Shown here: one piece after another, positions 3,941 through 47,794 of the stretch
Numbering within the stretch: position 1 is the stretch's first letter
Layout: the number at the start of each line of letters is the position of its first letter
Virus record (IMG/VR): IMGVR_UViG_3300045988_160639
Reading direction: 5' to 3' (one strand)
DNA length: 64,000 bases
Source: a virus
Translations under genes and position numbers: made by a program
The notes under the pieces: generated by a model
Told to the model about the DNA's origin: nothing
Seen by the model: the letters and a program-made list of their open reading frames with translations, nothing else
Database searches by the model: none

Positions 3941-4347
3941 AGCATTAAATTTTATAATTTATATTAAAGGTTTGTATCAGAAAGCATACCAATCTGGAAC
4001 TCTCTGCCCTTTGTAACATCAGTTGCACTATATTTTTATTCAACGAGGGACGCTAATCCTCGCCAGTTTTAAACTTCTTTATATTTCTATAAAGGATAGA
4101 CTATATCTTTACCCATTAAGGGCAAGCACCACTTCCATACGCTTGTATGTACTTCCTTACGGAATAGTCGTTGAACTTTACCTTTCGGTCTTAGCTGCTG
4201 ATTATCCATTGTTAAAGTGTTTAGGTTTTAACCTTGCACTATCTATTCAATTTTTTCTACTTTCGTAACATTCACGCTTATACCCTTTAAGGTATTACGT
4301 TGTAGTTTGAATAGTTTTAAGAGTTCCCAGCAATTCAATGCTTATTT
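3941..4347 (-). ncRNA. Candidate structured non-coding RNA downstream of the capsid gene
   Basis: About 400 nt with no credible ORF in an otherwise tightly packed late operon, and locally higher GC. On the minus strand there are several short hairpins capped by GNRA tetraloops (ACC-GAAA-GGT, TTCC-GUAA-GGAA) plus other stems (CGAGG...CCTCG, TACC...GGTA). Confidence 0.3.
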
Positions 4348-5442
4348 TTACGCACATTTTTCAATATACGGAGTCTGCAAAATGTTAAACTCAATATCCA
4401 TACGAGTGAGTACATGACCGGTTGTTATATCATTACCACTGAATGTAGTCAGTCCACCTCTTGTCCAAGACTTAATAGGAGAACCGTACTGACCACCAGT
4501 AGGAACAACAATGGCAAGACCTGCATCGAGCATAGTATCAAAATTATCGCCAGTAGCATTGAGAGAAGAATAATCATAAGGATTTGTCATCTCTGCAAGA
4601 ATAGTTCCGTTATATGCACCGAGAATACCCTTTGTGCGAATATCTCTAAGGTCTTCTGCGGAAATGCCCTGTGTATAACCATATCTGGAAGAATTATATA
4701 CAAATTCAGAGTTATAACCTGCCCAAGGAGTAAACTGCTGAAGAAGTGCATAATCACCAATTACGGTAGCACCTGTGCCAAGTCTTCTTACCTTCTTGAG
4801 AACATCATCAACACCAGCCTTAGTGAGACCTGCACCCTCAAAGAAATACTTTACAGGAGTAGCGTTCTTAACAGCATTGTAAGCATTAGTTACAATAGCC
4901 TTCTTCATCTTATTGATAATATCAATTCTTACCTGATTCTTGCCTTCGTTCTCCTTAGACATATCACCAAGCATAAGTCTGCGGTAATCGGTAGCCCAAC
5001 CGCCAGAAATAGTCTTTGTGCCTACTGCATACTTGTCACCCGTAATTGCAGGGAAAATTACATCAGCGTTAAGTGCCTGCTCACGAGACTTGTCACCAAT
5101 AAACTTCCAAGACTCTACCTCAATAGACTCGTCATATCCAAGAGCTTCAAAATCACCGAATACAGCAAGATTCTGAATTTCTGCGGTAAGAAGAGGCTCA
5201 ACAGAATACTTTCTAATAGTGTTAAGTTCTGCAAGAGACTTAGGATCACCATTAGCAATACCTGCACCAAGTTCCTTGAGTCTATTTACAACAGCGTCTG
5301 TCTTCTTACCGTATTTAGACGTGTCCTTACCATCTGTAAGGGCGGAGAAAATTTCTACAATAGGAGAATTAGGCTTAATCTCATTTGTAAGAGTGACATC
5401 AGAATCACGTCTTACGTTGTTCATTTCAAAAGTCATATCCAT
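4348..5442 (-). CDS. Major capsid protein (HK97-fold type inferred)
   Basis: 364-aa ORF in the canonical portal-scaffold-capsid order. Codon usage looks highly expressed. Confidence 0.6.
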   Translation of the reverse strand: MDMTFEMNNVRRDSDVTLTNEIKPNSPIVEIFSALTDGKDTSKYGKKTDAVVNRLKELGAGIANGDPKSLAELNTIRKYSVEPLLTAEIQNLAVFGDFEALGYDESIEVESWKFIGDKSREQALNADVIFPAITGDKYAVGTKTISGGWATDYRRLMLGDMSKENEGKNQVRIDIINKMKKAIVTNAYNAVKNATPVKYFFEGAGLTKAGVDDVLKKVRRLGTGATVIGDYALLQQFTPWAGYNSEFVYNSSRYGYTQGISAEDLRDIRTKGILGAYNGTILAEMTNPYDYSSLNATGDNFDTMLDAGLAIVVPTGGQYGSPIKSWTRGGLTTFSGNDITTGHVLTRMDIEFNILQTPYIEKCA

Positions 5443-16916: not shown

Positions 16917-17026
16917 TCATAATAAATTTTTGTTTAATTTGTCAATTTACATTTGACTTATTGTGTGATATAGTATATACTAGGGGGCTTATTTAAAACT
17001 ATATCATATCATATATTAACAATAAT

Positions 17027-17072
17027 AGAAATCACCCACAAACCACATAGATACGTCATTTGTGGGTGATTT
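17027..17072. terminator. 15-bp stem hairpin terminator
   Basis: GAAATCACCCACAAA / TTTGTGGGTGATTTC, located just downstream of minus-strand gene 17097-17999. Confidence 0.6.
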
Positions 17073-17096
17073 CTATATTAAATAAAAATACGGAAA

Positions 17097-17999
17097 TTAC
17101 TTCTTTTTTCTCTTTCTATCGTATTCCTTCACATATTTATCTTGACATTCATTACACCTCTTCTTATTTTTTACTATACCGACAACTTCAAACTCAGTAC
17201 CACAATCACAACAAACAATGGTTTTTATATTCTTTTTCTCATATCCTTGACATTTATCACAATATATCTGATGATTAGATTTCTTATAAAACACATTGCC
17301 ACACTTATTGCATTTTCTAATTTTCTTATTACCGTTATACCATTCAAACCAATATCCAATATTATTATAATTAATTATTTCAAACGCAACCTCGCCAAAA
17401 TCACCATTATAATCAATCTGCTCCATAAAGTTCATTCTGATACAACCGCGATTGTAAAGCTGTAAATAACCCCTCTTAGCAAGTTTTGAAATGAGGTCTA
17501 TATTTATATCTACCTTACTCGAAATATTACTTATTTTCTTCAGGTTAGAATATCTTGATGTTCCACCTTTAAAATAAATGTTATCATAAGGTTCATCTGG
17601 TTTCTTGATTTCAAAGTATTCTTTATTAAGTTTATAGACTATAAGCAATGTAAACAACAGTTTCTTTTCATCAAGAGTCAGTTCTGCACTATTGAAATAA
17701 TTAATCTCACACTTTAGAACAGGAACACTTTCTATTGTTATTAATTGATTTTTCTTACAAGTAGAATAATCTATCGCCTTATTAACCACCTTGTAGTATC
17801 TCATTCTGTGATAATCTTTGATATATTTCTTACAAATATTATGTAGTTCATTCTTTCTATCTTCCTTTTTTCTTATATCAAGAATATCACGAAGATAAAG
17901 TGCCACAAGTTTAATTTCTGTGTTAAAATACTTTTTAGAAAATCCGTGTTTAATTATATTTTCAGCATAATCTAAGTCTTTATATTTAAACTCATTCAT
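17097..17999 (-). CDS. Hypothetical protein with C-terminal double zinc ribbon, translationally coupled to the RNAP-like gene
   Basis: 300 aa. Motifs CNKCGN...CDKC and CCDCGT...CNEC. Has a 4-nt overlap with the upstream 931-aa gene. Confidence 0.55.
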   Translation of the reverse strand: MNEFKYKDLDYAENIIKHGFSKKYFNTEIKLVALYLRDILDIRKKEDRKNELHNICKKYIKDYHRMRYYKVVNKAIDYSTCKKNQLITIESVPVLKCEINYFNSAELTLDEKKLLFTLLIVYKLNKEYFEIKKPDEPYDNIYFKGGTSRYSNLKKISNISSKVDINIDLISKLAKRGYLQLYNRGCIRMNFMEQIDYNGDFGEVAFEIINYNNIGYWFEWYNGNKKIRKCNKCGNVFYKKSNHQIYCDKCQGYEKKNIKTIVCCDCGTEFEVVGIVKNKKRCNECQDKYVKEYDRKRKKK

Positions 18000-20791
18000 A
18001 CTTCAACCTCCTGCACAGAATAGTTTTCACCCAAATATGTAACATTGCCGTTTTTATCAGGCATCGGAAACATCACTGTAGTTTTGTTCATTCTAAGTTT
18101 TTCATAAATATATCTACCTATTAACTCCCACATAACATCTTTACTTTTTTGAGGATTATTTATGTAAAAATAGTCAATTACATAATTAAACGCACAACAT
18201 ACGCTTCCGACAGAAGCTATAATATCATATGTATACTTTGAAAAATCAAATATGCCACGTTTATCCTTTTCTTTTTCTGCATTCTCAAACTGTAACTCTC
18301 TATAAAAAAGTAAACATTCATCAATAATTCCTGATACTTTTTTATAATCAGAATTATCATATTCAATATCGTATTTTAAATCTAATACAGCTTTATCAGA
18401 ACTTTCTTCTTTAATCTTTTTTGAAATTTCAAAGTTAATACCCTCTATGTATTTACAAAGCAAATTCATTGAACTATCGCTCATTGTAACAGGCATATAC
18501 TTATAATAATTATCTAAGAAAGTCATTTGTTCTGGGGTCTTTTGACTTAAATCAATTAAAGACTTTAAGGAAATACCAAAACGCTGTTTGCAAGCTGTTT
18601 CATTGCTATCAACATATTTATCATACTTCTTCTTACAATCAGGGTATCTGTATCTAAAGAAATATGGATATTTGTCAAGAAGAATACTATTATAAAACCT
18701 TATTTTCTCTATATCCTCTGGCGTATAGCTGTTCTTTTCAGCCGTTTTATCATCAGTTTTTCGATATTCAACCCATAATTTTGGAATACCCTTAACCTCT
18801 CGTCCCAGTTTAGTCTTATCAATCTGACAGCTCTGTGCTTTACAGCACTGGATTAACCTTGAATATGTAATTCTCCACATATCATTATCTTTGCCATATT
18901 TATCTTCAATTTCTTTAAGTAAAGCGTAAGCATTACTACTCTTATTTGTTATTTGACCAATAATTGAACCAAAACCAAACTTGTCGGCATTCTGAATATC
19001 TTCTTTTGTAAAAATTTTCTTTTCAGGCTTTGGAGCATCATACGTCATTGTTAATTCATTTCTGTAAACACCCTTAATAATTGTGGGGTCAGACGTTGTT
19101 GCTAAAATATCAAGATCAAAATCTGCACCCCCGAAATTCTGCACTGTATGACCAAACCAATTTATTATAATGCCAGTTTTGCAATACCTGTACCATTTCT
19201 CAGTTTCAGCATTCTTTTTTAAATTCATAACAACGTGTTCCGATCTGAAAGTGAGGGGAGACCTCATACCGTCTACCTGTGTTACGTTGCGCTCATTCCA
19301 ATAGTTTGAATAAAATTCATCTTTATCAAGTAATCCAGTTGGTTCAATACCACAAACGTGTTGCATATAAGCATATGGGTCAGATACTAAAGTCTGAAAA
19401 TTACCCTTGACATAAATATCACCCATGCAACCCTTTTTTATTTTATTCTTTATCAAATCCCTTATTTTTGTACGAATAAACTTATCATTCTTCAAATCGG
19501 GATTTACCACAAGTGACTTTAACCAATAATTATCACTACTTCTCAAAAAATTGTTTATGCTTTCTTCTGTATTATTTGCTCCAAGCAAAAACAGCAACAT
19601 ATATTCAAAGTTATCATATGAAACACCCGTTATCCAATCAACAAAAGGCTTGCATAGTTCCTTTATGTCAGTTTCGTTCAAGTTCAAAGTCTGTAAGAAC
19701 TGGTAATTCATCTTTAGAATGTTTTTACACTCTTTAGGTGCATACTGGGGAATACCCCATTTCAAACCGTTTTTGTGGCATTTTTCAAGGTAATCATCGA
19801 CACCATTATAACAATTCCAAAGCTTAAACTGCGATTCAGAAATAATAATGTCGTAATCTCGAAGATCAACTTTTATATAATTTCCACTTTCATCTTTATA
19901 AATCGTATCTACTATGTAATTGCCACCGTTTATTTCTTCACAAAATTCGTGAATGGGGAACGTACAAAGCATACCCTTTATAAAGCTTTGCCTTAATCCA
20001 AATTGTGAGGGTATATAATCTAATCCTAACTCATTAGCCCATTTCTTAGCCTGTCTTGGAGATATAAGTCCCATTCCGTCAGTTCTGTTAAAAGTCTGTG
20101 TAACGGTCTTATCTTCTACTAAATCATCGGTGTTTCCTGCTATCTCAGTTACAAAATGTACGTCAAAGGTATCGGTATTTTCAAAATCTTTAACTACAAT
20201 AAACTTTGGTTCACTTACAACCTGAGTTGCAGAACTGCTAAGTCCAAAATAGGCATTATATTTACTTGCAGCGAGAGGAATATTCTTGTTTCTGTCATTA
20301 TCAAGTCTGTGAATTACTTCATCAATAATATCATCTGGACAAACCACAATAGTTGATTTACGAGCTTGTCCAGCAGAACAACTCAACCTGTGATAAACCT
20401 TGCCGTTTATTTCAACGCCATTTTCACAAATATAATCATAATCTTTTGTGCTTTCCATAACGATAGTTACATAATCTTTTACATATAGCATATCGTCTAT
20501 TTCAGATTGTACTTTGTTTCTGTTAGCAACAATCTTTTCAATGTCATCTTTTCCAAGAGATTTTGAATTTGAAAGCTTTTTATCATAAATTTCTCTGTCT
20601 GTATATAATCCCTCAACCTTATCAAAATCAATAACCTGCCCACGGACTTCTCTTATTGTACGAAGCATCTGACTATCAGCCAATGCAATTACACATTTTA
20701 ATTTTTTAGCTTCATCAAATTCCATATTAATTTTATACCCAAATTCCTTCAGAAGCGAAGATTTAAATTTCAGTGTATATATCTGTCTCAT
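17996..20791 (-). CDS. Single-subunit two-barrel RNA polymerase homolog (YonO / cellular RdRP family)
   Basis: 931 aa. IPSQFGLRQSFIKGML resembles the RdRP-family PSxFQxRxxxxKG barrel motif. MRSPLTFRSEHVV...NFGGADFDLDIL resembles the R-x-P ... (N/G)ADFDGD metal-binding loop of the beta-prime/RdRP barrel. Confidence 0.65.
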   Translation of the reverse strand: MRQIYTLKFKSSLLKEFGYKINMEFDEAKKLKCVIALADSQMLRTIREVRGQVIDFDKVEGLYTDREIYDKKLSNSKSLGKDDIEKIVANRNKVQSEIDDMLYVKDYVTIVMESTKDYDYICENGVEINGKVYHRLSCSAGQARKSTIVVCPDDIIDEVIHRLDNDRNKNIPLAASKYNAYFGLSSSATQVVSEPKFIVVKDFENTDTFDVHFVTEIAGNTDDLVEDKTVTQTFNRTDGMGLISPRQAKKWANELGLDYIPSQFGLRQSFIKGMLCTFPIHEFCEEINGGNYIVDTIYKDESGNYIKVDLRDYDIIISESQFKLWNCYNGVDDYLEKCHKNGLKWGIPQYAPKECKNILKMNYQFLQTLNLNETDIKELCKPFVDWITGVSYDNFEYMLLFLLGANNTEESINNFLRSSDNYWLKSLVVNPDLKNDKFIRTKIRDLIKNKIKKGCMGDIYVKGNFQTLVSDPYAYMQHVCGIEPTGLLDKDEFYSNYWNERNVTQVDGMRSPLTFRSEHVVMNLKKNAETEKWYRYCKTGIIINWFGHTVQNFGGADFDLDILATTSDPTIIKGVYRNELTMTYDAPKPEKKIFTKEDIQNADKFGFGSIIGQITNKSSNAYALLKEIEDKYGKDNDMWRITYSRLIQCCKAQSCQIDKTKLGREVKGIPKLWVEYRKTDDKTAEKNSYTPEDIEKIRFYNSILLDKYPYFFRYRYPDCKKKYDKYVDSNETACKQRFGISLKSLIDLSQKTPEQMTFLDNYYKYMPVTMSDSSMNLLCKYIEGINFEISKKIKEESSDKAVLDLKYDIEYDNSDYKKVSGIIDECLLFYRELQFENAEKEKDKRGIFDFSKYTYDIIASVGSVCCAFNYVIDYFYINNPQKSKDVMWELIGRYIYEKLRMNKTTVMFPMPDKNGNVTYLGENYSVQEVEV

Positions 20792-25446: not shown

Positions 25447-25665
25447 TTTATATCTACCTCACTTTTGTCTGTTAAATTTGTACAAACCCGTTAATCCATA
25501 CTTAACTTATTACTTCGTGAAACTTATAAGTATAAAAATTGTCCAATTATATGTTTTATATATACTATAATATACTATTATCTTAAATTTGGACAATTTT
25601 TATTATTCGTTTTTATCATCTCCTTTATTATTAGTAAAAGTTATAATTCGCCCTTTTTTCTTTTG

Positions 25666-25779
25666 CTACTTTTCTTTTTTGGGCGATAGTCGGCTATTTC
25701 ACATAGTTTTATGAGGCTTTGCGTAGCAAAGACCATAAAACGTGAAATGGACGAGTTTGTCAGCAAAAAAGAAAAGTAG
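25666..25779 (-). promoter_or_regulatory. 114-nt imperfect long hairpin in the 5' leader of the leftward operon
   Basis: Basal stem of 16 perfect bp (CTACTTTTCTTTTTTG / CAAAAAAGAAAAGTAG), internal stems TTTCAC/GTGAAA and TTTTATG/CATAAAA, and apical CTTTGC-GTA-GCAAAG. Lies between the promoter at 25823-25850 and the ATG at 25446. Confidence 0.6.
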
Positions 25780-25822
25780 ATTTTCAAATCTTATTACTTA
25801 CTTATAATATATCCACAATACT

Positions 25823-25850
25823 ATTATATCATATTTCATAAAAATGTCAA
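25823..25850 (-). promoter_or_regulatory. Sigma-A-type promoter (TTGACA-16-TATAAT) reading leftward
   Basis: The reverse complement reads TTGACA tttttatgaaatatga TATAAT. Confidence 0.6.
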
Positions 25851-26040
25851 GCGCTTTTTTGTTTGATTGAATTTTATCTTTTACTTAAATATCTTAAATA
25901 TGATGCGTACAATGACCTGTAGCTTATAAAAGTTTATAAATTTTTCATAAAAACACAAGAAAACAATCTGTAATTTTTATAACCTTCGATTTATTTCTAT
26001 GAATTTATGATGTTTACTTGATTTGAGATACTTCTGATAT

Positions 26041-26575
26041 ATTAAATATAGGTTTGATCTTTGATACTTTTGATTGATTTTTATAGTATTCGGAGAAAAT
26101 TTAGAATTTATCGGTGTTTGAGCGATTTAGATTTTGTGTTAATTTTTGAAGTGTTTGACATGTGATTTGAAGTGAATAGGTTGTATTTTGGGTTTAGAGT
26201 TGAGTGCAAATGAAGTATTGTGTATTATTCTTGAGATACTTGTATTAGGCTCTGTGATTAGATTTGAGAGGCATTTGTGTGGGTAGGATAATTTGTTGTT
26301 TGAAATGGTAAAGTGAGTGTAGAGTGTTCTGTGGTTTGTCTGAGAGTGCAGTGTGAGTATGGATTTTGAGTTCTTGAGATAGATATGTTTTGAGGTTGTT
26401 ATTGTTGGTCTGTAAGTGAGATAAATAGGGGAGTCAGCCGAAGAATAGTATCGAATGATTTTTGAGATATTTTTGGAATATTTTTTTGGATTATGAGAAT
26501 GGATCATGAGAAAAAGAAATTATGGATGAGTGTCAATTTGGATTTTTAGACGTGTGAGTTGAGTGGAACTACTAT
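26041..26575. other. C-depleted (G/T/A) arm of the non-coding hub
   Basis: A manual count gives roughly 20 C in about 530 nt of the plus strand, with abundant G. TGAG and TTGAGATA recur many times. A possible plus promoter is TTGATA-17-TAGTAT at 26061-26089. Confidence 0.7.
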
Positions 26576-26778
26576 ACTCTTCTAAGCAAATATTAACAAA
26601 CTTTTAAATGTAAACACACCCCCCCTGTACTGCCGATTCTATGTTATTTTTGTCCCAAAAGCAACATAGACAGTAATATTTTAGAAATATTTCTACTAAC
26701 ATTTCTTAATGAATTTTAAAGCTAATTTTATTAACATTTCTTGAATTTTTTATATAAATATTGTTGCCGGTAGCATTG

Positions 26779-26829
26779 AAAATAATGACTAACGGTCACT
26801 TTTTCAAATAATGACTAATGGTTACTTTT
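26779..26829. repeat. Two tandem ~25-bp direct repeats (AAATAATGACTAAYGGTYACTTTT)
   Basis: Read directly. The first copy contains the palindrome TGAC-N5-GTCA. Confidence 0.7.
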
Positions 26830-26900
26830 AGTGGTTCGCTAACGTTGTTAATTTATTTAACACTGTTAAATAATTAAAACCAAATTAAAGCATAATAAAG

Positions 26901-26930
26901 AAAACAAGAGAAAATAAGAGAAAACAAAAG
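26901..26930. repeat. 3 x 10-bp tandem repeat (AAAACAAGAG / AAAATAAGAG / AAAACAAAAG)
   Basis: Read directly. The period is one helical turn. Confidence 0.7.
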
Positions 26931-26940
26931 CTTACAAGAG

Positions 26941-27350
26941 ATATTTTAAAAAATACATCATAATACATCATAATATATCATAATACATAAGCCTATTTCT
27001 CTAATCGCCAATCCATAACAGCATTAAACTATACCACATTACTATAAATTACACCACATAACCATATATAACCACACCTAAACAGTACATAAATAACCAT
27101 CTTCAAATCTGCTCTGCTCTTCAGGTAAGCTCAACCTCTTCCGCTCAGGCACTTTCATATTTTGCAAAATAGCCAAATTTCACGTCCCAAAACTATGCAA
27201 TGTCACAACATAAATATATCTAACAAATCACATAATTATTACTAAATTATAAACGTCAATTATTGATTATCAATAACAAAATATCAATTCGCAATAAAAT
27301 TATATCAAATAACAATAAATCACGCACACGCCATTTTAACGCACCTGTTA
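26941..27350. other. G-depleted (A/C/T) arm of the non-coding hub
   Basis: A manual count gives only a few G per 60-nt line on the plus strand. Contains ACCACA-type repeats and the palindrome TTATTGAT-T-ATCAATAA at 27260-27276. Confidence 0.7.
26952..26991. repeat. 4 x 10-bp tandem repeat (AATACATCAT), iteron-like
   Basis: AATACATCAT AATACATCAT AATATATCAT AATACATAAG, read directly. Confidence 0.75.
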
Positions 27351-27565
27351 GGGTAATTATACCACTATAAACAAAACGTCATACAGCGCATTGTAGCAGC
27401 ATTTACGACGATTTTATCCGCTTCCAGTCTGATTATACAATATGCACAATACACTGCCGTTATATTTATATATTATACCTATTGACATTTCAATATTGCA
27501 CGTTCTAATTGCATTTGGCTATTAGCTCCGACGCTTATACAAATACTTTATTGCGTTAAAATATA

Positions 27566-27748
27566 TCAATTAAGTATATTATTATCAATACAGTATGTTA
27601 TCATCGTTTCAATAGCTTCTTTTTTTGTAATATCATTTTGTTTACAGTAGTTAATAAATAATTCATATATTTCATTACTTATTGTAATGTTTAATTGTTT
27701 GTTTTTATTATAATAATTTGTTAATGCTTTTTTCACACTTTCTTTCAT
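27566..27748 (-). CDS. Ribbon-helix-helix (CopG/Arc-like) regulator
   Basis: Start reset to MKESVKK (GAGGGGGG SD). LNITISNEIYELFINYCKQNDITKKEAIETMI fits the beta-strand/helix/helix pattern. Confidence 0.55.
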   Translation of the reverse strand: MKESVKKALTNYYNKNKQLNITISNEIYELFINYCKQNDITKKEAIETMITYCIDNNILN

Positions 27749-27826
27749 ATCTAAATCAGCCCCCCTCAATTATAATATTTGTGCATTATTATATGCTATT
27801 TTTCAAAATTTGTGATTGTATTTCCT

Positions 27827-27947
27827 CAATTTGTGCAATATCACAACAAATATACACTATATACAGTATATTCAACTATTTATACGCTGTTTAATACTCA
27901 TATTTCATTGTCATTTTGCACAAATTCCGTTATATTGCACAAATTGA
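27827..27947. promoter_or_regulatory. Operator-like repeats AATTTGTGCAAT / ATTGCACAAATT
   Basis: An exact 12-bp sequence at 27827-27838 and its reverse complement at 27936-27947. Partial copies lie near 27777, 27809 and 27913. Confidence 0.5.
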
Positions 27948-28033
27948 CTCGCTTTACATATTGCTAGGTATATGTTATAATATAATCAAGATAAGGGAAG
28001 GGAAAACAAAAGAAAACAAAATTCCCAACCTAA

Positions 28034-28062
28034 ATAATATCATAAACCAACAAAAATGTCAA
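28034..28062 (-). promoter_or_regulatory. Sigma-A-type promoter (TTGACA-17-TATTAT) reading leftward toward the RHH gene
   Basis: The reverse complement reads TTGACA tttttgttggtttatga TATTAT. Confidence 0.55.
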
Positions 28063-28076
28063 GCATATTTTTCAAC

Positions 28077-28105
28077 TTGACAAAATCGAAAGGAAGTTAT
28101 AAAAT
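28077..28105 (+). promoter_or_regulatory. Sigma-A-type promoter (TTGACA-17-TAAAAT) for the rightward early operon
   Basis: TTGACA aaatcgaaaggaagtta TAAAAT, back-to-back with the leftward promoter. Confidence 0.55.
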
Positions 28106-28333
28106 GACTACAATAAAAGCAACGTTCATTCAAGTGCTCTGTTTTAGGCTTTCCGAATTTTTCAGAAGGTCGCACAAAAAGCAGGTTACAAGAGCCTGCA
28201 CAATGGAATCAATTTAAAAGTAACGGCTTCAACGGCTGAACCAATAAATCAGCCGTCAATATCACGACAAAAAGGTAAATCCCTTCAAGCCGTGCCAAAG
28301 ATAAGCAAATAATAATTATGGAGGTTAAAACAT

Positions 28334-28761: not shown

Positions 28762-29028
28762 CATAAAGTGCTTTATCTGCACAAATTAAAAAAATTTTGG
28801 GAGGTTAAAACAATTTTGAATTTGGTGCGTATGCGGTAGCAGAACATTAAACACGTCAGGGCGTGTATAAAAAGGCATTTAGGCTCTGAGCGTTTACGGG
28901 GATTTTTCCCCGTAAGGTATGCACAATAAGCATAACAGCACGGTTAAACGGCTGTAAGCCGTTAGTCTCTCGCAATAGTGGGAGACAGCTAAATAAATAA
29001 AACGTGTATTTGATAGGAGGGTTTTAAA

Positions 29029-29322: not shown

Positions 29323-29428
29323 TTGCAGAGCATTGCAGGCGGTGCAATTCCGCTTGTAATAATGCAGCTTAACGGAAACGTTAAAAGGTTGCAAGCCCTT
29401 AAAAATTGAATTGATGGAGGTTTTAAAT

Positions 29429-32996: not shown

Positions 32997-33110
32997 AAAG
33001 TTGTCCGAGCAGCTATAAACAGTCCATTAAGCTCGGAGCGTTTGGCAGTCTGAGTAAGGCTGTCAAGGTTGGAAAAATCAAAGTAGGAAAGAATATGGAG
33101 GAAATAAATT

Positions 33111-39452: not shown

Positions 39453-40811
39453 ATGGCAAAGACAGCAAAGAAAAAAGATTACAATTCTATTGAAATCAAT
39501 GGAACTGCTTATACCATTGCAGAGCGTGTGAGAGAAGAATCTGATGTGCGGATGATTCCTTATTCAGTAAAAATGTATGTTGAAGAAGTTGACGATGGAG
39601 AGATTTGTCGTGATCCACTTATACAGAGAACGGATGACCAGTGGACAAAAAAGCAGAAGTCTAAGTTGATTGAAGCTGTTTTACATAATAGACCTATCGG
39701 AAGTATGGCACTTGCCAAGGGTAGAGCTGAGAGTAAAAGTTATTCAATCACATCTCTCGTAGATGGATTGCAGAGAACCACAACACTTGTAGACTTTTAT
39801 CACGATAAATTTGCTTTGGATAAAAGAGCATTACCTGTTGTGTGTAGATGTGTTGACGAAAATGGCAATGAACAAAAAGTTGAAATTGATATTGCAGGGA
39901 AAAAATATTCTCAGCTTTCTGATGCGATAAAGACATTCTTTAATAAATATAGTCTTACCACATATATGCACGAGGGCTTTTCTGATGAAGAATTGGACGA
40001 CATTGTATTCTGTATGAATAACGGAAAGTCTCCAAATGCTTATCAGAAAATACGTTTTGCTCTCGGTTCAACAATTATGCGTTCTTTGCAGCCAATTTGT
40101 GATAGCACACTTTGGGAAGATGTTAATGGTTGCAAGGCAAAAAATGACAGTATCCTTTGTTGTATAGTAAGAACTCTTATGATGATGACATTTTACAATT
40201 ATAATAATCTTGGCTCTGCAACGATGACTAAGTTTGTAGATGATTTTGATGATTATGTAAAAGCATCGGATATCGCTAATCTATCTATACTCGTAGAGGA
40301 ACTTGCGGAAATTAAGATGAATCTGTCGGAAGAAGAATCTACAAGATTAGATTCTGTGACTATTCCACATTATATAATGAGTCTTAATTCGTTTAAGAGA
40401 AAGAACAAAACAGCCACTGATTACAGAAACTTTCTCAATAAATTCTGGAGCAGTGATAATTTTGAACTGCTTACATCAAGCTGTGAATCTAATGGTAGCG
40501 GAAGTTCTCTGTATTCTGCTGAAATGGTAGAAGACAGACAGTATGCTATAGATGATTATATGGACGAATATCTTGATGAGAATGAGGGTGAAATAAATGG
40601 CGAAGAAAACGGCACTGACGAAAGCGGAGCAACAGGAAATACTAACAACGGAGATAATGGAACTGAAACAGACATTATCTCAGACGTGTTTGACACTGAA
40701 ATTGTGTCAGAGGATAGTGGAACTGGCAACTCGTCAAGTGGAATTGAATCCGAAGTCAATGAAGATGGAAACGTCCTACAGGGAAGTGGGCAAAGCTTTA
40801 GGTCAGCCTGA
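39453..40811 (+). CDS. DUF262/ParB-like protein, paralog 3, with a long acidic low-complexity tail
   Basis: LIQRTDDQWTKKQK, LVDGLQRTTTLVDF and MNNGKSPNAYQ. The C-terminal ~90 aa is rich in D/E/G/N/S/T. Confidence 0.75.
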   Translation: MAKTAKKKDYNSIEINGTAYTIAERVREESDVRMIPYSVKMYVEEVDDGEICRDPLIQRTDDQWTKKQKSKLIEAVLHNRPIGSMALAKGRAESKSYSITSLVDGLQRTTTLVDFYHDKFALDKRALPVVCRCVDENGNEQKVEIDIAGKKYSQLSDAIKTFFNKYSLTTYMHEGFSDEELDDIVFCMNNGKSPNAYQKIRFALGSTIMRSLQPICDSTLWEDVNGCKAKNDSILCCIVRTLMMMTFYNYNNLGSATMTKFVDDFDDYVKASDIANLSILVEELAEIKMNLSEEESTRLDSVTIPHYIMSLNSFKRKNKTATDYRNFLNKFWSSDNFELLTSSCESNGSGSSLYSAEMVEDRQYAIDDYMDEYLDENEGEINGEENGTDESGATGNTNNGDNGTETDIISDVFDTEIVSEDSGTGNSSSGIESEVNEDGNVLQGSGQSFRSA

Positions 40812-47005: not shown

Positions 47006-47080
47006 TTGGGATTAGTATAATGAGAAGTACATCAGCCTTTGACACTGATAGTTTCGGGGCAGAGCCGAAATCCCAAACCA
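47006..47080 (+). tRNA. tRNA-Gln (anticodon UUG), non-canonical T-loop
   Basis: TTGGGAT TA GTAT AATGAGAA GTAC A TCAGC CTTTGAC ACTGA TAGT TTCGG GGCAGAG CCGAA ATCCCAA A CCA. Confidence 0.65.
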
Positions 47081-47150
47081 AATGTTAGTTTTATTCTGGC
47101 ATAGCCTCCCTACGGTTTCTCTGACTTCCGTATAAAAAAGTCAGGAATAA

Positions 47151-47224
47151 GCACCATTAGTTCAATAGTAGAACAAACGACTTTTAATCGTTAAACATCG
47201 GGGCAGAACCGATATGGTGTACCA
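47151..47224 (+). tRNA. tRNA-Lys (anticodon UUU), non-canonical T-loop
   Basis: GCACCAT TA GTTC AATAGTA GAAC A AACGA CTTTTAA TCGTT AAAC ATCGG GGCAGAA CCGAT ATGGTGT A CCA. Confidence 0.7.
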
Positions 47225-47474
47225 TTGGTGGTTGATTGATACTGTCAAGGTATCTTCAATCTAATACATATTTTGTCTGATGCTCTGCAAAGCTCAGACA
47301 TACTTATAAAAGATATCGCAATATTTTTTATAAGTATTTCATTAAAATATGTGTTAAGTGTCTAAACAGCAATAACAAGTCGTATTCTGTTGGCACTAAA
47401 AATCGAATATGAGGTTTCATATTAACAAATAGCGACTTTGAACGGATGAAAAACCTGCTAAGTGGTTTAAATAT

Positions 47475-47551
47475 CTCCCAATAGTCCAATCGGCAGAGAC
47501 ACAGAACTTAAAATTCTGACAGTGTGGATTCGAGTTCCACTTGGGAGACCA
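47475..47551 (+). tRNA. tRNA with anticodon UAA (Leu codon UUA) but a short variable arm
   Basis: CTCCCAA TA GTC CAATCGGCAGA GAC A CAGAA CTTAAAA TTCTG ACAGT GTGGA TTCGAGT TCCAC TTGGGAG A CCA. The T-loop is canonical. Confidence 0.65.
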
Positions 47552-47709
47552 AATCTGAAATTGGAAAAAACAGCAACATTAGGGTTGTTTGTAGAACAAG
47601 AGTAGGCGAGTAGTTCACGAAACGAATAGCAACTTTGTGGTTTTAGCGGATGAGGATAACTTTAGAATGAACCGCCCAAAAGCCTGTGAGGATAATCAGG
47701 CACTCATCT

Positions 47710-47794
47710 GCTCCTATGGTGGAATTGCAAGACACGCTTGACTCAAAATCAAGTACCGAAAGGTGTGACGGTTGGAATCCGTCTGGGAGTACCA
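47710..47794 (+). tRNA. tRNA-Leu (anticodon CAA), type II with a long variable arm
   Basis: GCTCCTA TG GTG GAATTGCAAGA CAC G CTTGA CTCAAAA TCAAG TACCGAAAGGTGT GACGG TTGGAAT CCGTC TGGGAGT A CCA. Confidence 0.65.

Follow-up and report, generated by a model that had tools for sequence, protein, structure and literature searches.

Mirrored segregation of G and C at a divergent hub of an SPβ-like gut phage and its coincidence with genome termini in related phages

The stretch of DNA analyzed here (hereafter, the window) comprises 64,000 nucleotides of the IMG/VR virus record IMGVR_UViG_3300045988_160639, in which a leftward and a rightward operon diverge from an ORF-poor gap of about 2.9 kb (positions 25447-28333, hereafter, the hub). 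This locus raises the question of why non-coding DNA should consist of two arms of opposite strand composition, one of them almost free of C and the other almost free of G. The initial annotation of the hub, made from the letters alone, proposed that the arms encode two convergent, C-poor transcripts serving as a protein sponge or, alternatively, that they record strand-specific C-to-T decay of exposed single strands. The comparative analysis reported here points elsewhere: the hub is very probably the packaging-terminus hub of an SPβ-like phage, a placement that derives from homology. The layout appears to be both conserved and undescribed, and no mention of the G/C asymmetry was found in the SPβ literature, as far as it is searchable.

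The skewed part of the hub comprises the following segments:

25998..26568, plus strand: left arm, with a C-poor, G-rich plus strand; composition kept in all relatives that carry the hub
26569..26940, no strand assigned: core, ~370 bp, unskewed and repeat-rich, with inverted and direct repeats
26941..27350, plus strand: right arm, with a G-poor, C-rich plus strand; composition kept, sequence replaced in several relatives

The near-absence of C from 26041-26575 and of G from 26941-27350, originally noted from the letters alone, was borne out by exact counts. On the plus strand, the former segment consists of 144 A, 26 C (about 20 had been estimated), 146 G and 219 T (GC skew +0.70), and the latter of 171 A, 95 C, 24 G and 120 T (GC skew -0.60). 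Within its best-fit limits (25998-26568), the left arm contains 27 C in 571 nt versus 93.9 expected (binomial P=4e-18), along with 153 G, and the right arm, with best-fit limits 26941-27350, contains 24 G in 410 nt versus 68.2 expected (binomial P=4e-11). No other 500-nt windows of the 64 kb are as strongly skewed as these arms (window SD 0.21), and the sliding-window computation confirmed that their skew runs counter to that of the flanking coding arms. The left arm is unrivalled in the window (4.3% C versus 6.75% in the next-lowest segment outside the hub), whereas the right arm, with 6.0% G, is extreme but not unique, given that a coding segment at ~17001-17400 contains 6.25% G. That segment is the 3' half of a gene for a 300-aa protein (17097-17999, minus strand), the coding strand of which is unusually C-poor. 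In the arms, G reaches 23-27% compared to 16.6% in the genome, at an unchanged G+C content of ~32%, which indicates that G and C have been segregated between the strands rather than that C has merely been lost. On its inner side, the left arm stops sharply at ~26568/26569, with C common again beyond it, and the G-rich, C-poor strand of each arm runs 5'->3' toward the core (the plus strand on the left, the minus strand on the right). The claim that the hub holds no credible ORF stands insofar as the hub is non-coding overall, but with the exception of a gene for a 67-aa ribbon-helix-helix (RHH) protein at 27566-27769 on the minus strand, of which the initial annotation was aware.

Simple sources of such a pattern were examined and rejected. 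The arms do not represent a degenerate large inverted repeat, as the local alignment of one arm against the other scores 23 versus 26.6 +/- 3.3 for shuffles. The primases of Firmicutes prefer YTA on the lagging-strand template; avoidance of this trinucleotide was rejected as well because the observed/expected ratio of TTA, 0.89, equals that of the control TAA.

The window is part of a phage genome of ~100-135 kb that encodes a portal protein, a large terminase, a family-B DNA polymerase and a YonO-family RNA polymerase. The RNA polymerase (17996-20791, minus strand; 931 aa) is a YonO-type single-subunit two-barrel enzyme (Pfam RdRP, E=1.6e-12) that is closest, at 45.6% identity, to that of the SPβ-like Bacillus phage BUCT082, and its presence indicates that this gut phage belongs to the SPβ-like lineage. 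The best GenBank matches of the large terminase (TerL) are those of Psychrobacillus phage Perkons (45.5% identity, 98% of the query) and of BUCT082/SPβ-like phages (43.1%, 97% of the query). Matches to metagenome-assembled genomes (MAGs) suggest Lachnospiraceae, Clostridiales and Angelakisella as hosts. Judging from its proteins, the phage is an SPβ-like temperate phage of gut Clostridia with a YonF-type large terminase. No nucleotide match to the hub or to the flanking 8 kb was found among GenBank phages, so relatives were sought via proteins, and ~30 related loci were retrieved with the flanking genes and the RNA polymerase as anchors.

A mirrored arm pair is present at the same divergent hub in every examined relative that carries the hub. 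The arms are 70-93% identical among close relatives, and the same arm composition is found in locus L010, the hub of which has no blastn similarity to that of the window, in L032 (RNA polymerase 49% identical, genome GC 46%), in L031 (genome GC 28%), and in SPβ-L8, BUCT082, Perkons and Geobacillus E3. Sharing of k-mers between the hubs is only modestly above that in shuffles, and, when the same nine genomes are compared, 49% of the arm columns are variable versus 26% of the four-fold sites in the gene next to them. Comparison of relatives, which the initial annotation had called for, hence showed that composition is kept and that sequence is weakly constrained. The skew is not a general property of the non-coding DNA of these phages because the 1.7-kb ORF-free gap of SPβ-L8 from yonN to yonK (L041 14665-16353), where YonO initiates, shows no strong GC skew. 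The lack of skew in this gap, together with the presence of arms in Geobacillus E3, in which no YonO match was found, led us to reject the arms as a feature of YonO promoters; the arms of E3 indicate instead that they track the terminase/terminus module and not the polymerase.

The arms coincide with genome termini in three relatives. In SPβ-L8, the divergent gap beside yonP-yonO contains the arms in miniature, with 8, 4 and 1 C followed by 5 and 8 G per 100 nt, and the genome-opening point (pac) of SPβ has been mapped between yonR and yonP by restriction analysis combined with read coverage (10.1101/2021.11.22.469490; PMC8270828). BUCT082 has a linear record that is broken at the arm edge, the core coming first in it and the C-poor arm last. 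For Perkons, PhageTerm has identified a direct terminal repeat of 264 bp at the genome ends (PMC13245101); the C-poor arm of this phage (136099-136547) stops exactly at the start of the repeat, which is itself unskewed, and a G-poor stretch is encountered 400-700 nt inward from the other end. In Geobacillus E3, which encodes a terminase of this family, the arms are located at the record ends. The large terminase of the window is, by sequence comparison, orthologous to those of phages with mapped termini, and the position of the hub, divergent, ORF-poor and adjacent to the operon of the YonO-type RNA polymerase, is syntenic.

The correspondence with the SPβ region extends to short motifs. The trio TTGAGATAC, TGTGATTAG and CGTGTGAG is essentially confined to the left arm within the 64 kb and occurs in the same order in the arm of SPβ-L8. 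The motifs and conserved islands of the left arm are:

26023..26031 and 26231-26239, plus strand: TTGAGATAC; both copies in the 64-kb window are within the left arm
26247..26270, plus strand: 24-nt island AGGCTCTGTGATTAGATTTGAGAG, containing TGTGATTAG; every position identical in at least 11 of 12 relatives
26542..26557, plus strand: island ATTTTTAGACGTGTGA, conserved among relatives
26551-26558, plus strand: CGTGTGAG, common to L006, SPβ-L8 and BUCT082

In the C-poor arm of SPβ-L8, TTGAGATAC is found at the outer side, and TGTGATTAG, which occurs once in the 64 kb, is found twice. The island AGGCTCTGTGATTAGATTTGAGAG is likely to be a protein-binding site. The pac region between yonR and yonP of SPβ, phi3T, Goe11-14 and BUCT082 resembles the hub in the divergent arrangement beside the YonO operon, the mirrored arms, the motif trio, the orthologous terminase and the location of the main sigma-A promoters outside the arms. 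The differences are that the SPβ arms are ~300 nt long, compared to 400-570 nt in the window, that the RNA polymerase operon is on the opposite side of the motif-bearing arm, and that SPβ c2 is devoid of most of one arm. In the hub of the latter (L050 7111-8062), the arm distal to yonP has been cut to ~80 nt by the insertion of yonR, whereas the yonP-side arm is intact, a naturally occurring partial deletion of potential use in experiments. With Perkons, the likeness consists in the closest TerL (45.5%), the C-poor arm abutting the 264-bp repeat, the G-poor stretch inside the other end, and the sequence ACTAAAAGTAAC, which is part of the 26-bp core repeat of the window (26821-26832, minus strand) and which, in Perkons, forms without any change the unit repeated directly inward of the terminal repeat. 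The second arm of Perkons is, however, shorter and weaker, and the termini, which are experimental in Perkons, are inferred in the window.

The explanation that we favor, tentatively and with somewhat less than even confidence, is that the hub is a packaging terminus in which the arms are the subterminal flanks, with a C-poor, G-rich 3'-ending strand; both strands would then be hairpin-free when single-stranded, and this would aid annealing or recombination of the ends. The core (26569-26940) is predicted to contain the site of terminase cleavage or a short terminal repeat. Cutting within the core would render each arm subterminal, and the C-poor, G-rich strand would then end 3' at the nearby genome end, with the polarity of a telomere. 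Resection in the 5'->3' direction, or lagging-strand synthesis that stays incomplete at linear ends, would produce 3' single-stranded tails and so expose one strand of each arm and both strands of the terminal repeat, which would explain why the flanks are mirrored and the core is unskewed. Single-strand exposure would, under this scheme, be the selective or mutational cause of the skew. With G and C on separate strands, neither strand could form G-C hairpins, the G+C content of the duplex would be kept, and the exposed strand would be nearly free of deaminable cytosine. Annealing or strand invasion via the terminal repeat would thus be favored, leading to circularization and concatemer formation, and the left-arm motif trio would probably be bound by a packaging or end-binding protein.

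The hairpin-free property was observed when the folding of 300-nt segments was scanned across the window with RNA and DNA parameters. As single-stranded DNA (ssDNA), both arm strands fold at about -2 to -8 kcal/mol in three arm windows of 300 nt and at -11.6/-13.5 kcal/mol in the fourth (range over all arm windows, -2.3 to -13.5 kcal/mol), compared to a background of -23.8 +/- 6.2 kcal/mol, the weakest value of which is -9.3.

Known terminus systems offer partial parallels. In telomeres, it is the G-rich strand that points 5'->3' to the end, and in the Watson model of T7, 3' tails over the terminal repeats join the ends; the hub, by contrast, includes neither tandem telomeric repeats nor a telomerase, and its G-rich stretch is subterminal, inside the terminal repeat, so that the comparison is an analogy only. 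In the bipartite pac sites of P1 (pac) and SPP1 (pacL-pacC-pacR), recognition arms with short repeated motifs surround a central cleavage zone. Similarly, the arms of the hub flank a putative cleavage zone and at least one of them contains short motif repeats, but the P1 and SPP1 sites are 100-270 bp long, are defined by repeats, lack G/C segregation and show no sequence similarity to the hub. One paper on SPβ likewise reports no similarity to the SPP1 pac site.

Several considerations weigh against this explanation. The terminus of the window phage is placed by homology only. We know of no system that requires such arms. SPβ-like phages have been described as headful packagers, and headful packaging would provide one fixed end only, leaving two arms unaccounted for. 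SPβ c2 is viable despite the loss of most of one arm. The length of the tails, 300-700 nt, and the benefit of their being hairpin-free are assumptions, and the SPβ transcript ncr1052, discussed below, fits an explanation based on transcription. Finally, Brevibacillus phage Sundance, with a TerL of the same family and a 323-bp terminal repeat, has no clear arms, and none were found in the YonO-bearing Enterocloster phages, Thomasclavelia TR-TP1 and c-st. The presence of arms in E3 and their lack in these phages suggest a terminus module of one clade rather than a universal one. With respect to recombination, neither the SPβ nor the BUCT082 arms contain the B. subtilis Chi sequence (AGCGG) on their 3'-ending strands.

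If the terminus is recurrently single-stranded, the skew could, instead of being selected, be a neutral mutational footprint, whereby the exposed arm strand deaminates (C to U, A to hypoxanthine) and drifts toward G+T, in the manner of the vertebrate mitochondrial heavy strand, with the composition itself functionless. This is the second option of the initial annotation, and we consider it improbable. Relative to the genome, losses and gains in the window arms come close to cancelling out, with C down by 11.5 and T up by 9 percentage points, and A down by 6.5 and G up by 8.5. In addition, A<->G toggling dominates the G-rich strand in both arms (the left arm has 122 A<->G versus 48 C<->T columns, and the right arm mirrors this pattern), the polarity fits 3' tails at termini, and the Perkons terminal repeat is unskewed. 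The enrichment of T is, however, not general: the C-poor strand is 47-69% purine across the phages, and SPβ, BUCT082 and L032 replace the lost C by G and A, not by T. Such lack of conservation of the A/T skew argues against pure C-to-T plus A-to-G deamination drift and for a constraint on G/C asymmetry. Changes that create C are scarce on the G-rich strand (T>C 0.11 per site versus A>G 0.23), and A>C changes are missing (0, rate 0) compared to 12 T>G changes (rate 0.06), from which ~7 would be expected; in both cases, the other arm is mirrored. Moreover, the measured rates of T>C, 0.11, and C>T, 0.17, predict far more C than is present, the sharp edges and conserved islands indicate constraint, and prophages are double-stranded in the host chromosome for most generations. 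Thus, of the decay proposal, the recurrent exposure of one strand survives in a modified form, with the arms flanking the physical genome end in relatives, whereas plain C-to-T decay does not, because G is enriched at constant G+C and the A/T skew is not conserved.

The strongest alternative, although in our estimate an unlikely one, is that the arms form a bidirectional Rho-dependent sink or insulator, in which RNAs leaving the core or crossing the hub end in the far arm, before reaching the late or early operons. The far-arm RNA, C-rich, G-poor, untranslated and structure-free, would load Rho, and the inbound G-rich RNAs would be immune. The RNAs leaving the core have the properties of Rho utilization (rut) regions, being C-rich (C:G ratio 5.6 over 535 nt), G-poor, unstructured, untranslated and at least ~80 nt long. 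They are also the least structured in the window: the RNAs of the G-poor strands of the arms fold at -5.9 to -17.5 kcal/mol per 300 nt, compared to a background of -55.8 +/- 11.1 kcal/mol with a weakest value of -23.1. The main sigma-A promoters lie outside the arms in both the window and SPβ, and only the G/C asymmetry is conserved, not that of A/T, as Rho loading sites would predict. No intrinsic terminator was found in the hub, the sole terminator-like hairpin being located at its right edge (28268-28252, minus strand), and G-poor DNA is unable to encode GC hairpins. The role of Rho in Firmicutes is, however, limited, the arms, at 400-570 nt, far exceed the needs of a Rho loading site (they are 5- to 7-fold longer than rut regions and mirror-paired around a DNA-processing site), and neither their symmetric spacing at the physical terminus nor the unskewed terminal repeat is explained; Rho dependence of the hub is a prediction only. 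The only transcript experimentally detected in the homologous SPβ hub, ncr1052 of SPβ lysogens (183 nt; hub ~412-594), starts in the core, runs outward in the direction of yonP and ends ~65 nt into the G-poor arm (PMC2965217; PMC4448311), as expected of such a sink, although its boundaries derive from few reads and its hub coordinates are indirect, the anchor being the position of yonP (~2,222,341) in a published table. For the hub, no Rho data were found, and the literature on Rho, yonP or yonO termination yielded no relevant result.

Transcription in the opposite direction, toward the core, would produce G-rich, C-poor RNAs, and the evaluation of this possibility depends on the promoters and the regulatory gene around the arms:

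25823..25850, minus strand: consensus sigma-A-type promoter, TTGACA-16-TATAAT with an upstream TG; 12/12 hexamer positions
26061-26089, plus strand: promoter-like element, TTGATA-17-TAGTAT; 9/12
27566..27769, minus strand: RHH regulator gene, 67 aa (PF10723 RepB-RCR_reg, E=1.3e-5; phrog_876)
27826..27947, no strand assigned: inverted, operator-like copies of TTGTGCAATAT that separate the RHH gene from its promoter; one pair 95% complementary
28034..28062, minus strand: leftward sigma-A-type promoter, TTGACA-17-TATTAT with an upstream TG; 11/12
28077..28105, plus strand: promoter-like site of the rightward operon, TTGACA-17-TAAAAT

The promoter at 25823-25850, which is located outside the arm, drives the leftward operon that includes the RNA polymerase and late genes; conserved blocks at this promoter are 25796-25810, 25815-25828 and 25840-25851, and it has AAAAATGTCAAGC in common with the promoter at 28034-28062. 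The elements on which the initial annotation based its convergent transcripts, at 26061-26089 and 28062-28034, are indeed present, with the match scores listed above. A functional version of the convergent-transcript idea is that RNAs initiated from these inward promoters (28062, through the RHH gene, which is transcribed toward the hub, and the weak site near 26061) escape Rho, form R-loops with the C-rich template and either prime bidirectional replication or open the DNA for the terminase, in a manner likened to ColE1 RNA II, T4 ori(uvsY) and the T7 end promoters. This scenario benefits from the GC skew of +0.6 to +0.7 along inward transcription, from the near-consensus leftward promoter at 28062-28034, which fits the right arm (the left arm offers only the weak 9/12 site) and is followed by no terminator after the RHH gene, from the match of the RHH protein to a replication-regulator family, from a conserved block (26060-26071) that spans the TTGATA -35-like box, and from the repeat-rich, iteron-like core. 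We nevertheless find it distinctly improbable, given that nucleating G clusters are rare (3 GGG runs in 571 nt and 1 in 410 nt), the G density is only 23-27%, the TTGATA boxes of relatives come without consistent -10 boxes, SPβ-L8 shows no obvious inward promoter, the sole mapped SPβ transcript is directed outward, and no initiator gene adjoins the hub. R-loop zones, such as ColE1 RNA II, immunoglobulin switch regions and CpG-island promoters, and also vertebrate mitochondrial DNA (mtDNA), in which the asymmetry is linked to single-strand exposure, share with the hub a strand-specific excess of G over C across hundreds of bases; the hub differs in the rarity of G clusters, the lack of conserved A/T skew and the arrangement of its arms, which face each other.

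Related candidates were also discarded. The scarcity of GGG runs led to the rejection of G-quadruplex and G-cluster models, and the shared ATTGATAT/TTGATA word was rejected as an inward promoter because its positions and the -10 boxes are inconsistent. Around the upstream region of the RHH gene, direct and inverted copies of TTGTGCAATAT / CAATATCACAAC (27826-27947, and also 27198-27212 and 28257-28271) have an operator-like appearance.

The same inward promoter-like sites speak for the principal proposal of the initial annotation, that of two unstructured, C-free non-coding RNAs acting as protein sponges, which we nevertheless regard as highly improbable. The premise that C-poor RNAs lack structure had to be abandoned: the G/U/A-rich transcripts fold like shuffles, at -101.2 kcal/mol (535 nt, z=0.03) and -75.6 kcal/mol (410 nt, z=+1.2), because G-U and A-U pairs suffice, and it is their G-poor complements that are near structure-free (-19.7 and -18.5 kcal/mol). 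Comparison with shuffles revealed no evolved RNA structure in the arms (z from 0.03 to +1.9), and no Rfam family was detected in them, either at the gathering threshold or at E<=1. Words of the TGAG type are enriched in the left arm (18 versus 2 in the right arm), but the repeated motifs are restricted to that one arm, and the arm sequence turns over faster than synonymous sites. A CsrA-type sponge in particular was rejected as GGA is not enriched (10 observed versus 11.1 expected).

Translation of the G-poor strand was examined for the longest open frame on it:

26139..26507, minus strand: spurious 122-aa ORF on the G-poor strand

The initial annotation considered this ORF an artefact of composition, and the comparison of relatives agrees. 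The fraction of variable sites at codon positions 1/2/3 is 0.42/0.43/0.41, with no 3-nt periodicity (computed on 11 of the 12 aligned sequences), the ATG and the frame are lost in most relatives through frameshifts or stops, so that the frame is broken in nearly all of them, and the indel lengths are not divisible by 3. A coding function of the G-poor strand was rejected because there is neither a conserved frame nor codon-periodic substitution. In most arms (11 phages), the open frames of the G-poor strand nonetheless exceed those of mononucleotide shuffles, for example, 126 versus 65 +/- 18 codons, and the depletion of TAA at the dinucleotide level (observed/expected 0.89) accounts for only part of their length.

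The significance of the hub depends on which of the above causes applies. The sites of pac recognition and terminal-repeat junctions are usually perceived as short motifs, whereas here composition is conserved over 300-570 bp on each side, without alignable hub sequence and across genomic GC contents of 28-46%. Should the composition be selected, it would be a new kind of cis-element at phage genome ends; should it instead be a scar left by mutation, it would offer rare evidence of the strand exposed at the ends of phage DNA and of the length of that exposure. In the clade that includes SPβ-like phages, Perkons, E3 and the gut Clostridia phages, the arms might be a selected, telomere-like, composition-encoded element that provides single-stranded ends for circularization and concatemer formation and protection from deamination, and that perhaps also serves as a two-way Rho sink, but this full proposal is rather doubtful. 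The mirrored skew is also a cheap computational marker of termini in metagenomic contigs of this phage family, and the presence of the arms in SPβ, a tractable model phage, makes their function directly testable.

The remaining features of the hub are repeats of the core and a structure in the leader of the leftward operon:

25666..25779, minus strand: long stem-loop in the leader of the leftward operon, -40.9 kcal/mol, z=-5.2
26638..26670, no strand assigned: inverted repeat TCTATGTTATTTTTG / CAAAAGCAACATAGA in the core
26780..26829, plus strand: two copies of the 26-bp direct repeat AAATAATGACTAAYGGTYACTTTT in the core
26899..26988, plus strand: 10-bp tandem repeats, AGAAAACAAG x2.9 and AATACATCAT x3.7, at the junction of the core and the right arm

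The arms of the core palindrome, GCAACATAGA, recur in the core of L010. The stem-loop is located between the promoter at 25850 and the gene for a 401-aa protein and is ~100% conserved in the relatives that have it; hairpins with a similar CTTTGC-N-GCAAAG top are found in the hubs of the Enterocloster phages. Conceivable roles of the stem-loop are attenuation, processing and protein binding.

Additional RNA elements and genes were noticed elsewhere in the window. Just to the right of the hub, the intergenic regions of the rightward operon contain two Pistol ribozymes and a Twister-P5 ribozyme (28851-28922, 32999-33073 and 29324-29400, all on the plus strand), and the occurrence of several self-cleaving ribozymes in one operon suggests programmed mRNA processing. 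In the leftward arm of structural genes, a group I intron (4077-4397, minus strand; 69 bits, full-length model) adjoins or overlaps the ORF 4348-5442 on the same strand. A tRNA cluster spans 47006-47794 on the plus strand, in which Rfam identifies four tRNAs and ARAGORN two (Leu-TAA and Leu-CAA), so that two of the tRNAs may be atypical. Finally, the gene at 39453-40811 on the plus strand encodes a 452-aa phage protein with the N-terminal domain of GmrSD, a restriction endonuclease for modified DNA.

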